Virus record (IMG/VR): IMGVR_UViG_2585427760_000005 | Length of the DNA stretch: 20,784 nt | Source: a virus | Taxonomy: Duplodnaviria > Heunggongvirae > Uroviricota > Caudoviricetes | Direction: 5' to 3' (one strand) | Shown: positions 9,653 to 20,784 of the stretch, one piece after another | How positions within the stretch are numbered: the first letter of the stretch is position 1 | How the letters are laid out: each line of letters opens with the position of its first letter | The notes under the pieces: generated by a model | Databases searched by the model: none | The model's input: the letters and a program-made list of their open reading frames with translations, nothing else | What the model was told of the DNA's origin: nothing | Made by a program: the position numbers and the translations under genes

Positions 9653-10285
9653 TTAGAGGCTCTTGATCACTTTTACAGCACGTCCGATAGCTTCAATATC
9701 ATCTACTGAGCATTCAAACGAAGATTCATCCTGATGGACCGCTAATTTGTTTCCTGGAAGCCGTGTTAATTTCACGATGCTTTTAACCCCATCAATATCA
9801 ACGAGCCATAGTCCATTTGTAATCTGTTTCAGTGATTGATCGACTACATAACTTTCATGAGCATTGTTGACGAATAAACAGTGAACAGGTTCATTCGGGA
9901 GAATGCTGTGATCGAGGTGAATATCCTCATTATCAGTTAAGCAGCCATTTTCTAGCGTTACTTGCTTGATCGATGGCGCGACAAGCTTTGCAAGAGGTCG
10001 AATTGTAGGTGAGGTCTCATTTTGAGGTTTTTTTACAGCCTCGTTTTGAGCGTACATCTCACCATGGCCAGTAGCCAACCACAGTAAAGAAACCCCCGTT
10101 TCGAGCGCGCACTGAATTACCCAGTCAGCAGGGAAGCTATCACGTAACAGTCTGTTTGACATAGTGCTTTTTGAAACGCCAAGCTGCTCACTTAGAGCCT
10201 GCTTTGTCTTAAGCCCATAAGCCTTTTGCAGCCGATCGATAGCTTCTCTACCCCCTGAATCGGCACCCATTGAAATACTCGCCAT
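9653..10285 (-). CDS. cI: Phage CI-type immunity repressor (186 CI-like, HTH N-terminal domain)
   Basis: A GGAG RBS 7 nt upstream supports a start at 10285 (MASISMGADSGG...). The segment AYGLKTKQALSEQLGVSKSTMSNRL...CALETGVSLLWLATGHGE is HTH-like and resembles 186 CI. Located between int and a divergent apl-like gene. The track start at 10375 would run through the operator region. Confidence 0.7.
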   Translation of the reverse strand: MASISMGADSGGREAIDRLQKAYGLKTKQALSEQLGVSKSTMSNRLLRDSFPADWVIQCALETGVSLLWLATGHGEMYAQNEAVKKPQNETSPTIRPLAKLVAPSIKQVTLENGCLTDNEDIHLDHSILPNEPVHCLFVNNAHESYVVDQSLKQITNGLWLVDIDGVKSIVKLTRLPGNKLAVHQDESSFECSVDDIEAIGRAVKVIKSL

Positions 10286-14973: not shown

Positions 14974-17387
14974 GCTTTTATCCATGGAACGCGCCAAAAA
15001 AGGCGATAAATCCAAACACGGACCCGGCGGAAGTTGCGCCGGTGTCCGCGCTTTCAAACCTGATTACTCTGTATGCCGCTGATAATGAGCAGAACCAGCA
15101 GCGCCGGGAAGAAATGAGTGATGAGGTCTGGGAACGCTATTTTTATAACGAAGCCCGTGATCCAGTTCTGCGTGAAATGGAGCAGGACCGGCTGATCAGT
15201 GGTGCCAAAATGGCACGCGAGCAGCAGAGGTTTAACCCCGATCTGGTCATTCTGGCAGATGTAAGCGCCGAACCATCACACATCAGCAAACCTCTGCTTG
15301 AGCGCATTAAATATTTCCATAGTCTGGGCCGTCCACAGGCTTATTCCCGTTATCTGCGTGAAACCATCAAGCCATGCCTTGAACGGCTGGCGCGTGCGCG
15401 TGACAGCCAGGTGTCTGCTTCATTCCGATTCATGGCTAGCCATGAAGGGCTGGAAGGGCTGCTGGTTCTGCCTGAAATGAATCAGGATCAGGTCAAACGC
15501 CTATCCACGCTGGTTGCGGCTCATATGAGCATGTGTCTGGAAGCTGCCTGCGGTGATCTCTATTCCACTGACGAAGTGAAGCCGGAAGAAATCCGCCAGG
15601 CGTGGGAACAGGTTGCAGCGGAGGCGATGCGCCTTGATGTTATCCCGCCAGCGTTTGAGCGTCTGCGCCGTAAGAAACGCCGCCGCAAGCCTGTGCCATA
15701 TGAGCTTATTCCCGGTTCGCTGGCGCGTATGCTGTGCGCGGACTGGTGGTATCGCAAATTGTGGCAGATGCGCTGTGAATGGCGCGAGGAGCATCTGCGC
15801 GCGGTATGTCTGGTTAACAAAAAGGCATCGCCGTACGTTAGCTATGAGGCGGTGATCCATAAGCGTGAGCAGCGCCGCAAATCGCTGGAGTTTTTCCGTT
15901 CGCATGAACTGACCAATGAGCAGGGTGATACGCTGGATCTGGAAGATGTGGTAAACGCCAGCGCCAGCAACCCGGCCCATCGCCGTAACGAGATGATGGC
16001 CTGTGTGAAAGGGCTGGAGCTGATCGCGGAAATGCGCGGCGACTGTGCTGTATTTTACACCATCACTTGCCCGTCACGCTTCCACGCCACGCTCAACAAT
16101 GGCAGGCCAAATCCGAAATGGACCAGCGCCACAGTACGACAGAGCAGTGATTATCTGGTTGATACGTTCGCGGCTTTCCGTAAGGCCATGCATAAAGTCG
16201 GGTTGCGCTGGTACGGTGTGCGAGTGGCTGAGCCTCATCATGATGGCACTGTGCACTGGCACCTGCTGTGCTTTATGCGCAAGAAACACCGCAAAGCTAT
16301 CACGGAACTGCTGCGCAAGTTTGCCATTCGTGAGGATCGCGAGGAGCTGGGAAACAATACCGGGCCGCGCTTTAAGTCCGAGCTAATCAATCCGCGCAAA
16401 GGCACGCCAACCAGCTACATCGCTAAATACATCAGTAAGAATATTGATGGGCGCGGCCTGGCTAATGAAGTCAGCAAGGAAACCGGCAAATCATTACGCG
16501 ATAACGCGGAGAACGTGAACGCCTGGGCATCACTGCACCGCGTCCAGCAATTCCGCTTTTTCGGTATTCCAGGTCGCCAGGCTTACCGCGAGCTGCGCCT
16601 GCTGGCGGGCCAGGCTAAACGCGACCTTCCGCCATTAAAACCCGTTCCCGGGAAACCTGAATTGACGCCAGAGATTCTGGCGGCCCTTGCAAATGCGCGG
16701 CCTGTTATCGGCAATCCGCGTCTTGATGCTGTGCTGGCTGCGGCTGATGCCGGTTGCTTTGCCACTTACATCATGGCGCAGGGCGGCGTGCTGGTCCCTC
16801 GCAAACATCACCTGGTCAGAACGGCCTATGAGCTGAACGATGAGCCGAGCGCCTACGGCGATCATGGTATCCGTATTTATGGCGTCTGGTCCCCTATTCA
16901 GGAAGGGCGAATTTGTACGCACGCGGTGAAATGGAAAATGGTTCGTAAGGCCGTTGACGTTGACCTGCCGGAGGCGTCAGCCGACCAGGGCGCTTGCGCC
17001 CCTTGGACTCGTGGCAATAACTATCCCCTTGTGGAAAATCTGAACAATTCAGACGCTGAAACAGGGGGGAATACTCCAGATATAACCGTTATGGATGAGC
17101 AGGAACTGCAGGAGTATCTGCACGGCATGGGAAGAAAAGAGCTTAAAGAGCTAAACACCCGTTTACGCCTGGTAAAACCGAAGCGCCGCAAAGGATATAA
17201 ACAGGAAATTGACGGGCAACAGCGGCTGCAGCTGGGTTATGAGCTGCAGTCCAGGGGCTTTGATGGCAGTGACAACGAGATCGATTTGCTTCTGAGTGGC
17301 GGCAGTATTCCATCCGGGGCAGGGCTGCGCCTTTTTTACCGTAACCAGCGGCTGCAGGAAGATGATAAATGGCGTCAGTGGTATTGA
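14970..17387 (+). CDS. Replication initiation endonuclease (P2 gpA family, rolling-circle nickase)
   Basis: 805-aa ORF as the last gene of the coupled early operon. Contains the paired-tyrosine motif YIAKYISK (Y-x3-Y), typical of P2 A-type nickases. Size is comparable to P2 A (761 aa). Confidence 0.8.
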
Positions 17388-17465
17388 TTTTACTGACGAT
17401 TTGATCGCCATCAGAACTATCTACTTGAAACTAAAAAAGAGTTTTACAATTCGAAATAACAGTTA

Positions 17466-17485
17466 TACTGTATATGTATACAGTA
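17466..17485 (+). promoter_or_regulatory. LexA (SOS) box TACTGTATATGTATACAGTA overlapping a putative promoter (TTTACA at 17443-17448, TATACT at 17464-17469)
   Basis: CTGT-N8-ACAG palindrome with 19 of 20 matches to the consensus TACTGTATATATATACAGTA, located about 30 nt upstream of a strong RBS (AGGAGG) and the ATG at 17517. Confidence 0.65.
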
Positions 17486-17516
17486 TTTGTTGGTGGTAGT
17501 AGAGATAGGAGGGAAA

Positions 17517-17705
17517 ATGCAGGATTACCTTTTGGAGTCTTTGAAACTCCAGCGTATTGATTTTTTTATCAAGCTTGTAGCGGCTAGTGAATGTAGTGAT
17601 GAAGAGAAGCGACTTGCTATCCAGTGGGTTTCTGAGCTGACGGATGAGTTGATGGCGAAAATCAGGAGTCATGAATACACTCGCTCTATGGATCTTCCCG
17701 GTTAG
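17517..17705 (+). CDS. Small SOS-regulated protein (62 aa) in the position of the 186 tum antirepressor; function unverified
   Basis: AGGAGG RBS 4-5 nt before the ATG at 17517, with a LexA box upstream. The track ORF starts earlier at 17487. Confidence 0.5.
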   Translation: MQDYLLESLKLQRIDFFIKLVAASECSDEEKRLAIQWVSELTDELMAKIRSHEYTRSMDLPG

Positions 17706-17718
17706 CAACAGGAACGTT

Positions 17719-17749
17719 GCTGACGTGAGAATCAGATTCTCGCGTCAGC
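17719..17749. other. 31-bp near-perfect palindrome (15-bp arms, one G-T mismatch, 1-nt spacer) just downstream of the small SOS gene
   Basis: GCTGACGTGAGAATC-A-GATTCTCGCGTCAGC, with a smaller hairpin (AGCAAC...GTTGCT) at 17703-17720 immediately before it. No T-tract on either strand. Confidence 0.35.
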
Positions 17750-17995
17750 GAGGTTGAACAACGAGCAAGGTGAGGTGTTCAGCTTTTAGTGGTTTTTTTG
17801 GTATCAAAGCACTATATGTAGCTATCTGAGCAGTGCCGGTTGAATTACGATCAGTTTTTCTTGTCGTAGTCGCCAAAATGAGATAGATAAACGGTTCCAC
17901 AAGATGTTCGCGACCCGGCATTGTTCTATAATCAGGTCATAACAAAAAGAATTAGCAGCAATGCCACATGTATGTAGGCACAGCGAGGAGGTCGT

Positions 17996-18190
17996 ATGAC
18001 TAAGATTTTTGGAAAAATTATCTCAACCCCAGGTCGATGGATGCAGGGTGTTATCCAGCAAGAGATTGAGCAGTCCAACAACAGTAAAATTACTACTGAT
18101 GCTAATGGTAACGCGGTTCTGAACATGGATAATAAGCAGGTTCGGGAATCAATGCAGGCCAGAATGAAAGAGCTTGCTGCAAAACGTTAA
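17996..18190 (+). CDS. Hypothetical small soluble protein (64 aa), first gene of a two-gene module
   Basis: Strong RBS GAGGAGG 4 nt upstream of the ATG. A TATAAT -10-like hexamer lies about 65 nt upstream. AT-rich. Confidence 0.55.
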   Translation: MTKIFGKIISTPGRWMQGVIQQEIEQSNNSKITTDANGNAVLNMDNKQVRESMQARMKELAAKR

Positions 18191-18199
18191 GGATAAACG

Positions 18200-19006
18200 A
18201 TGGGACCATTGGTCATAATGGTTGTACTTGTATGCGGGTTTTGGTACACAGAGAATCACTACCAATCCCGCATACGCCATGCAAGAACTAACGGCTGGAC
18301 ATCATACTTCTATGTTGCAATGCATGGATGTAAATTTGTCATTCAAGGCTTTGGTTTTATTTTGTTTATATACCTTTCGCTACTTGCAATAAGCCTAATT
18401 ATCTCAATCCCTCACGTATTTTCAGCTTCATACGGAATGAAAGACCTTTATTCATGGCTGACTGAAAAGACGCTCCTTTCCTATCCGATGTTTTTTGTGC
18501 TTTCCATGGCGGTTGCCTGTTTACTTGCTTATGTGGCGGGGGATGTAGCTAGGAAAGCCATAAAAAACGAAGAGGTTAGACAGGCGGCTTATCGTGAAAT
18601 GGCAGCAATGGATGGTGTTGAGTCCCTTTTGGTGCAGGCGATTGATGAAGATATGCTGATTTTTGTAACACTAAAATCGCGCAAAGTTTACATCGGATAT
18701 GTTGCTGCACCTCGTATCGAGCACAGCCACACACAGCATTTAGCGATTATCCCTTACATCAGCGGATATCGTGATAAAGATACCCTGCGCTACCATGAAC
18801 AGCACCGCTACTATGAACTGTATCTGGAAGAAGGAATTGCTGCCAATAAGCATGAGCGTGGGCTGAACCTACAACATTTCCGACATGTGATACCAATGGA
18901 TCAGGTAGAAGCTGTTTCATTGTTTGATACACATACCTATGTGTCATTTGACAACTACTCTGTGCCAGAGAAATCAGAGCAGGACACTCAGGATACTACT
19001 GCATGA
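18200..19006 (+). CDS. Hypothetical membrane protein (268 aa; 3-4 predicted N-terminal transmembrane helices plus a roughly 150-aa soluble C-terminal domain)
   Basis: AAGGA RBS 9 nt after the upstream stop. Hydrophobic stretches LVIMVVLVCGFW, FVIQGFGFILFIYLSLLAISLIISI and MFFVLSMAVACLLAYVAG. Followed by a terminator. Confidence 0.6.
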   Translation: MGPLVIMVVLVCGFWYTENHYQSRIRHARTNGWTSYFYVAMHGCKFVIQGFGFILFIYLSLLAISLIISIPHVFSASYGMKDLYSWLTEKTLLSYPMFFVLSMAVACLLAYVAGDVARKAIKNEEVRQAAYREMAAMDGVESLLVQAIDEDMLIFVTLKSRKVYIGYVAAPRIEHSHTQHLAIIPYISGYRDKDTLRYHEQHRYYELYLEEGIAANKHERGLNLQHFRHVIPMDQVEAVSLFDTHTYVSFDNYSVPEKSEQDTQDTTA

Positions 19007-19079: not shown

Positions 19080-19268
19080 CATACGTCATGCAGTTGCATG
19101 AAAACCACTACACAAAGCGGGCAGGCGTGGCGGGGATACGAGCGCGCGCTGGCACTTTGGATGATCGCTTCACCTGTATGAATGACCACCTTGAAAACTT
19201 GATTGTTCTGGACTTAAGTATGTACTTTATATTCGGAATAATCCGAATTGCTGAAAAGGATTCATGTG

Positions 19269-20290
19269 ATGATAGAAGAATTAACGATCAGAAATGCGGG
19301 TTCATATACTGGGCCAGAACAAAAATTGCATGGTTTATCTACATTTAATTATCTTTATGGAGCTAATGGTGCAGGTAAAACTACTATTAGTAAAATAATT
19401 AATGACCCAGATAATTATCCCGACTGCTTAATTCAGTGGAAAAACGCCAATAAGTTAATTAGTTATGTTTATAATAAGGATTTTGTTGACGATAATTTTA
19501 GTCAAGATAAAATAAAAGGTGTTTTTACCCTAGGGAGCGATATTAAAGGTGCACAAGAGAAGTTGATTTTATTAAATGAGGAAAGAAGTAAGCTTCAAGA
19601 AAAAATAACTACTAAACAAAAATTGTTAAAGGGTAGCTCTGATGATGTGGGTGTTATTAATGAACTGATTGAACAAGATAAAACTTTTAAAGACATTTGT
19701 TGGAAGCAAAAGCAAAAGCATGATGAGGTTTTTTTCAAGGCTTTTGAAGGCTTAAGGAACAGTACTGAAAAATTTAAAGCTCGAGTCCTTTCTGAATTCG
19801 AACAGAACACTGCAGCTTTACTACCACTAAGTGAACTTACTGAAAAGTGCCGTACAGTATTCTCGGATGAACTAGTTTCATACACGCCATTATCTATTCC
19901 TAAATTTGATGGGTTTAAATCTATTTTAAATCATGATATATGGCAGGAGAAAATACTGGGGAAAAAAGATGTCAGCGTTGCTGATTTGATTAGCCTATTA
20001 AATAATAGTGACTGGGTAAAAAGAGGTTTGGAATATTTTCACGAATCGAAGCCCACGTGCCCATTTTGTCAGCAGAATGTCAGTGATGATATTTTTCATA
20101 ATCTCTCATCTTACTTTGATGAAACATATAATAAAAAACAACAACTAATAAATAGATTGCTTTCTGAGTATCATAATCATATACAACGCTTAAAATGGGA
20201 ACTTGATAACATTAGGGATGCAAAGTTACCATTTGTCGATATCGAGACATTTGAAGACAAATCTAATATCATCATTTCTCTTTTAATTAG
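19269..20290 (+). pseudogene. ABC-type (AAA_13/RloC-like) ATPase, N-terminal half with Walker A and coiled-coil CxxC hook-like motif; 3' part removed or displaced by an IS5 insertion at 20290/20291
   Basis: MIEELTIRNAGSY...NYLYGANGAGKTTISKII (Walker A), a K/E/L-rich coiled-coil segment, then CPFCQQ. The ORF runs into the IS5 terminal repeat at 20291, so the last roughly 36 codons of the track ORF (to 20399) are IS5-derived read-through. An AAGGA RBS lies before the ATG at 19269. Confidence 0.65.

Positions 20291-20784
<494 letters not shown>

Follow-up and report, generated by a model that had tools for sequence, protein, structure and literature searches.

Among the described SOS-controlled antirepressors of prophages, the closest counterpart of the locus studied here is Tum of phage 186, a protein of 146 aa that binds the CI repressor and blocks its binding to DNA (Shearwin 1998, as reported in PMC3121763 and PMC7708051). 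The promoter of this gene, p95, is annotated with a -35 hexamer TTCACA, an 18-nt spacer, and a -10 hexamer TACTGT that forms bases 1-6 of a LexA box, and its transcription is SOS-dependent (annotation; PMC7708051). Tum carries a fused DinI domain in its C-terminal half (residues 72-142; PDB 1ghh, E 2e-6), and internal starts give rise to truncated DinI-like forms. In Fels-2 and PSP3, tum is split in two, and the upstream gene of PSP3 has antirepressor activity according to a personal communication in Bunny et al. 2002, as relayed in PMC3121763. The annotation of PSP3 describes tumA as "similar to 5' end 186 tum; UV induction of prophage" and tumB as DinI-like. In PSP3, Fels-2, and SopEPhi alike, the upstream gene of approximately 60 aa is under LexA control and corresponds to the 5' end of tum. 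For the prophage DuoHS of Escherichia coli HS, either deletion of tum or a lexA(Ind-) allele abolishes induction by mitomycin C (PMC12055606, Nat Microbiol 2025). The Salmonella lambdoid prophages Gifsy and Fels-1 encode the small LexA-repressed proteins GfoA, GftA, and FsoA, which can act in trans, bind a non-cleavable repressor, and are often encoded beside a dinI homologue (PMC3121763). These proteins belong to another phage group, act on another repressor family, and have a dinI-first gene order; their resemblance to the locus described below is one of logic alone.

In this work, we analyzed a stretch of 20,784 nucleotides (hereafter the window) that corresponds to contig JOSR01000287.1 of E. 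coli 1-250-04_S3_C1 and contains a prophage whose extent is known here only up to an insertion sequence (IS) element at the window end. The module located immediately downstream of the replication gene is very probably the SOS switch of this 186-like (P2-family) E. coli prophage, consisting of a LexA-repressed, stand-alone antirepressor of the TumA type. The mechanism is already known from close relatives, and the module in the window is a member of the Tum/TumA class in its stand-alone form. The operator, the promoter layout, the coding status of the gene, its homology to the N terminus of Tum, and the linkage between box and gene were established here. Its SOS dependence and its requirement for induction would follow by extension from the orthologues characterized in the literature.

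The first-pass annotation had claimed a near-consensus LexA box with one central difference, and both its sequence and its coordinates proved exact. The putative LexA operator (SOS box) at 17466-17485, to which no strand is assigned, reads TACTGTATATGTATACAGTA and matches the LexA consensus TACTGTATATATATACAGTA at 19/20 positions, with the single mismatch at position 11. Because the host is E. coli, the consensus of the E. coli LexA is a fitting yardstick. Within the 20.8-kb window, this is the only site with three or fewer mismatches to the consensus and also the only perfect instance of CTGT-N8-ACAG, and no site with three or fewer mismatches appeared in any of 100 shuffled windows that preserved dinucleotide composition. 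Scoring with a weight matrix, which the first-pass annotation had named as a check, gave a similar picture. The matrix is a rough one, derived from 20 E. coli SOS boxes, and its scores are approximate; it assigned 26.3 bits to the box, which places it above each of the 20 training sites and level with the 186 p95 box. The runner-up in the window scored 8.9 bits on the same rough matrix, and the scan of the window revealed no second LexA-like site elsewhere in the prophage.

The association between box and gene extends well beyond this prophage. We compared 34 species-representative loci of many enterobacterial genera, including Lelliottia, Citrobacter, Kluyvera, Serratia, Enterobacter, Pantoea, Tatumella, Erwinia, and Izhakiella, and 33 of them have a LexA-like box that precedes the start codon by 40-100 nt. 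The only locus without such a box has just 53 nt of upstream sequence present.

The arrangement of the operator differs between the window and its relatives. In most relatives, two LexA boxes overlap with an offset of 15 bp, and the second of these has a poor left half. The upstream region in the window is 15 bp shorter and contains one box, which is nearer to the consensus than either of the boxes in the relatives. When aligned with the relatives, the box in the window takes its left half from the first box and its right half from the second, and this joining accounts for its nearly perfect sequence. Judging from this alignment, the single box looks like the product of a deletion or fusion between the two boxes.

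A promoter had also been suspected beneath the LexA box, and we found that TTTACA-17 nt-TACTGT reproduces the layout of 186 p95, though a sigma-70 consensus scan that required 4/6 matches in the -10 hexamer yielded no match at this site. The scan missed the promoter because TACTGT matches TATAAT at only 3/6 positions. The putative -35 hexamer TTTACA (17443-17448, + strand) is preceded by an A-run at 17433-17438; this (A)5-6..TTTACA arrangement is kept in the alignment of the 34 related loci and is the counterpart of the annotated -35 of p95. The putative -10 hexamer TACTGT (17466-17471, + strand) lies inside the LexA box after a 17-nt spacer and is identical to the annotated -10 of p95; the spacer of p95 itself is 18 nt. 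LexA bound at this box would be expected to cover the start site as well as the -10 hexamer. Across the aligned upstream regions (n = 35), the A-run, TTTACA, the spacer length, ATACTGTAT..ACAGT, and AGGAGGGAA(A/G)ATG are kept, and the sequence in between drifts. The last of these elements, which takes the form (T)AGGAGGGAA(A/G)ATG in most of the homologous loci, includes the ribosome-binding site, which can be seen directly in the window as AGGAGG at 17507-17512 on the + strand.

This ribosome-binding site precedes a tumA-like gene at 17517-17705 (+ strand, stop included) that starts with ATG at 17517, ends with a stop codon at 17703-17705, and encodes 62 residues. The first-pass annotation had described such an ORF, and comparative analysis indicates that it is a real coding gene. 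Among 35 homologues, the third codon position varies in 53 of the first 55 codons, compared with 31 for the first position and 17 for the second; codon differences from the copy in the window comprise 665 synonymous and 191 non-synonymous changes. On the strength of these substitution patterns, we regard the ORF as being under purifying selection. Its position right after the replication gene, also noted earlier, is correct: the last base of the gpA gene (Pfam Phage_GPA, 5e-130) is at 17387, and both genes lie on the same strand. The order of gene A followed by a tum-type gene is common to the window, 186, PSP3, and SopEPhi, and the LexA box of 186 likewise lies over the TACTGT hexamer just downstream of gene A.

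The gene family is widespread, with copies in 1254 of the 5426 complete genomes of E. coli (about 23%) and across many Enterobacterales. Its database label is nearly everywhere "hypothetical protein," and the PHROGs database lists it as of unknown function. Many database entries place the gene start too far upstream, which results in versions of 87-109 aa. The label "levan regulatory protein" attached to a few entries is unsupported, as it has no corresponding family in Pfam or NCBIfam and is not traceable to an experimentally tested protein. An antisense ORF at 17463-17708 was considered and rejected; the antisense frames of nearly all homologues contain stops.

The structure of the protein is predicted to be simple. 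An AlphaFold model based on an alignment of 39 sequences consists of a two-helix hairpin (helices at residues 2-23 and 28-58) with a mean pLDDT of 88. A Foldseek search with this model returned generic helical hairpins only, all with E above 1, and structure searches are uninformative here because a two-helix fold is too simple. A sequence search of the PDB with the 62-aa protein found nothing better than E 6, neither Pfam nor NCBIfam contains a model for it, and PADLOC returned nothing meaningful.

Homology to Tum became apparent when sequence profiles were compared. The 62-aa protein matches phrog_698 (6e-36), phrog_8554 (2e-8), and phrog_1993 (2e-3), and residues 1-70 of 186 Tum match the same three families in a different order of strength, namely, phrog_1993 (1.5e-23), phrog_8554 (3.4e-12), and phrog_698 (5.9e-6). 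The match of the Tum N terminus is in register, spanning positions 6-44 of 63. A profile-profile comparison by hhalign, in which 22 family members were set against the Tum N terminus together with PSP3 TumA, ENT90, and a Yersinia protein, gave a probability of 92% and an E-value of 6.6e-7 over about 38 columns (5-42 versus 3-40). With 186 Tum alone, the hhalign match was weak (25.7% probability), and it was only by setting one alignment against the other that a convincing match was obtained. A bridge between the two is provided by gp014 of Yersinia phage vB_YenM_201.16, which the 62-aa protein matches with E 1e-7 and which has a region that matches the Tum N terminus. By pairwise BLASTP, no alignment was obtained between the 62-aa protein and either full-length 186 Tum or PSP3 TumA; the latter is too diverged from the window protein for a pairwise match, and the similarity to 186 Tum is seen by profiles only. 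The relationship to SopEPhi is much closer, with orf10 being 93.5% identical to the window protein. On the basis of the profiles and these intermediates, we judge the 62-aa protein to be a homologue of 186 Tum that corresponds to its N-terminal half only.

This partial homology removes a doubt that the first-pass annotation had itself raised. The length of 146 aa that it gave for 186 Tum is correct, and the window protein has only 62 aa because it corresponds to the N-terminal half of Tum; the DinI half is a separate gene in relatives and is absent here. We found no DinI-like ORF within 600 nt downstream of the 62-aa gene. The 62-aa protein has no similarity to the DinI family and no match to phrog_189, a family with a DinI-like C-terminal part that is matched by both the C-terminal half of Tum and SopEPhi orf11. 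PSP3, Fels-2, and SopEPhi differ from the window in having kept a DinI-like second gene, which in SopEPhi is the 77-aa orf11 located 11 nt after orf10. Among the 34 related loci, a DinI-like gene is found downstream in 20 and is absent in 14 (about 40%), and the stand-alone arrangement is therefore common among relatives.

The experimental evidence for an orthologue comes from DuoHS. The published deletion primers (...GTGGTGTCATAGGAGGAAAG-ATG-TGA-GGTGACTTTTATGCGCATTG; PMC12055606) have two halves, both of which are exact matches to Klebsiella phage MK416009 (L044), where they fall on the start codon (1501) and the stop codon (1687) of a 62-aa ORF. This ORF is 88% identical to the window protein and is followed, 10 nt past its end, by a DinI-like gene. 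Because the primers fit the two ends of the 62-aa ORF, the gene that was deleted in HS is the small upstream ORF alone and not the DinI-like gene; the sequence of the HS tum gene is deduced here through primer matches to other records rather than from the HS genome. DuoHS thus has the same small ORF as the window but differs in that it keeps the DinI-like gene and the two-box layout, judging by the matching records L021 and L044. By analogy with PSP3, in which the upstream gene is active, and with DuoHS, in which the deletion removed the small ORF alone, the DinI half would not be required for antirepression, and the DinI-like second half of Tum is evidently dispensable. What the DuoHS study covers is the induction phenotype. 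Together with the shared PHROGs and the hhalign result, the deletion of this orthologue supports the earlier proposal of a tum-like, LexA-repressed antirepressor in the window.

The presumed target of the antirepressor is a 210-aa CI protein encoded at 9653-10285 on the - strand. It matches Pfam Phage_CI_repr (2.8e-29) and Phage_CI_C (8.3e-32), the same Pfam families to which the cognate CI of 186 belongs, and aligns with 186 CI over 193 aa at 34% identity (E 1e-37). Like 186 CI, it lacks an autocleavage domain; no match to Peptidase_S24 was found, and this domain content suggests that CI is not cleavable through RecA. An apl-like gene and a cII gene (CP76) follow; the first-pass annotation had named a 186-type cI/apl/cII switch. 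The 62-aa protein presumably binds this CI directly.

Taken together, these features suggest the following sequence of events. In an undamaged lysogen, LexA bound at 17466-17485 would cover the TTTACA-17 nt-TACTGT promoter at its -10 hexamer and its start site. Upon DNA damage, activated RecA would promote the self-cleavage of LexA, and the promoter would fire. The gene at 17517-17705 would then be expressed to give the two-helix protein of 62 aa, a TumA form that is expected to bind the non-self-cleaving CI and to keep it off its operators. With CI removed, the early lytic promoter that serves apl, cII, and the replication genes would be derepressed.

The identity of the direct target is the part of this scheme for which an alternative has to be weighed most carefully. 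The gene could be an SOS-controlled induction gene that acts on something other than CI, for example, by sequestering another conserved phage or host factor, or it could dock on a surface common to all 186-type CI proteins and serve as an immunity-independent inducer of heteroimmune P2-like prophages that share its cell. In comparisons among 29 loci (within L003-L036), the antirepressor, with a median pairwise identity of 85%, is far better conserved than CI, whose N- and C-domains have medians of 52% and 36%, respectively, and the identities of antirepressor and CI are uncorrelated (Spearman -0.01 and -0.09; 406 pairs). Pairs of antirepressors that are at least 93% identical are found beside CI N-domains that are 29-99% identical and C-domains that are 26-99% identical. 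The heteroimmune relatives L007, L009, and L021, for example, have CI C-domains with 26-30% identity. Such an absence of co-variation is unexpected for a tight and specific pair of partners and makes a broader target, or another one, conceivable. The distribution of CI itself can be read in both directions. A 186-type CI is present in all 29 related loci in which CI was compared and in each related locus whose early region is intact, which argues for CI as the target. Four loci have no 186-type CI; one of them (L015) has a different arrangement, and the other three (L010, L029, and L036) are truncated remnants. The persistence of box and gene in these CI-less remnants is in line with a different target, as are the trans-acting, cross-inducing antirepressors documented for Gifsy and Fels-1 (PMC3121763). 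Against a target other than CI stands the binding of the homologous 186 Tum to CI, as described in the sources cited at the outset. Furthermore, the CI N-domain keeps invariant patches across the compared loci, which read AYG, S.S..S.R, and C...TG....WL.TG.G and could provide a common docking surface, and because of these patches the lack of co-variation is compatible with CI as the target. For these reasons, we consider this alternative improbable overall and retain the reading in which the 62-aa protein would act on CI at 9653-10285.

The three remnants deserve a brief description. In L010, L029, and L036, the LexA box and the antirepressor gene are kept, CI and most of gene A are lost, and the flanks consist of IS elements or host genes.

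These patterns nevertheless lead to a tentative idea, which we regard as possible though somewhat doubtful, that antirepressors of the TumA type are immunity-independent inducers that dock on an invariant surface of CI or on another conserved partner. If this idea is true, one damage signal could fire all co-resident 186-type prophages or remnants regardless of their immunity, and the boxes and genes in CI-less remnants could act purely in trans. The absence of co-variation with CI thereby raises a testable question, namely, whether cross-induction occurs among heteroimmune P2-like prophages.

A second alternative is that the gene encodes an SOS-induced accessory product unrelated to induction, such as an exclusion factor like 186 Orf97, a DinI-like modulator of RecA, a toxin, or a "levan regulatory protein." One submitter has given the exact protein the name "Levan regulatory protein," and "levan regulatory domain protein" stands in some Klebsiella phage records. 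The protein is without a Pfam or NCBIfam model, and p95 of 186 also expresses orf97, a gene that is not involved in induction. However, a DinI-like modulator would be hard to reconcile with the lack of similarity to DinI and with the presence of the DinI-like gene as a separate ORF in relatives, and both the homology to the Tum N terminus and the phenotype of the orthologue deletion point to induction. This alternative is accordingly given very little probability. That the LexA-like palindrome is a chance occurrence or a relic upstream of an unexpressed ORF is a near-negligible prospect, since the negative sigma-70 consensus scan that could speak for it is outweighed by the failure of the shuffled windows to yield such a site, by the joint conservation of box, -35 hexamer, ribosome-binding site, and ORF across many genera while the flanks drift, and by the strong synonymous excess in the ORF.

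The preferred reading, a LexA-repressed antirepressor of the TumA type, has practical value for annotation because a very common protein now labelled "hypothetical" can be named by its function. A TumA-type gene may serve as a marker of which P2-like prophages are SOS-inducible, with the DinI half being optional.

Downstream of the gene, we found a conserved stem-loop of approximately 20 bp right after the operon (17713-17755, + strand; core arms 17719-17732 and 17736-17749) that is supported by covariation among 24 loci. In these loci, 94% of the cells are paired, compared with 30-49% when the partners are slid, and 56 cells show double changes, compared with 12.9 +/- 3.4 in shuffles, with none of 500 shuffles reaching the observed value. 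The excess of G-U over A-C combinations (15 to 5) suggests that the structure forms in the + strand RNA. A conserved motif, GGTTGAACAACGAG-N5-CGAGGCGTTAG, follows the stem-loop and extends to about 17782, where it borders a variable cargo region. In the relatives, no U-tract follows the stem-loop, and Rfam has no family in 17300-18100. The copy in the window has a putative second hairpin at 17753-17799 on the + strand, formed by GTTGAACA and TGTTCAGC and followed by TTTTAGTGGTTTTTTT. The RNA fold of 17700-17810 has a free energy of -40.2 kcal/mol (z = -5.1). The 3' arm of the second hairpin and its T-run are present in the window copy and are not conserved in the relatives. Judging from the fold and the T-run, 17753-17799 probably acts as an intrinsic terminator for the SOS transcript of the window copy.

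The region that follows is a cargo hotspot of the P2 type. Between the antirepressor gene and a candidate defense gene of the AAA_13/PDC-S06 type lie two co-oriented cargo genes, which encode proteins of 64 aa (17996-18190; phrog_22451) and 268 aa (18200-19006; phrog_3630). PADLOC returned no match for these two genes, which may belong with the PDC-S06 candidate defense gene. The PDC-S06 gene is represented in the window by its N-terminal half (19248-20399), which covers profile positions 1-334 of 732; intact copies in identical prophages (L040-L042) encode 777-779 aa. It is interrupted by an IS transposase gene (DDE_Tnp_1; about 20437-20784, - strand) that reaches the end of the contig.
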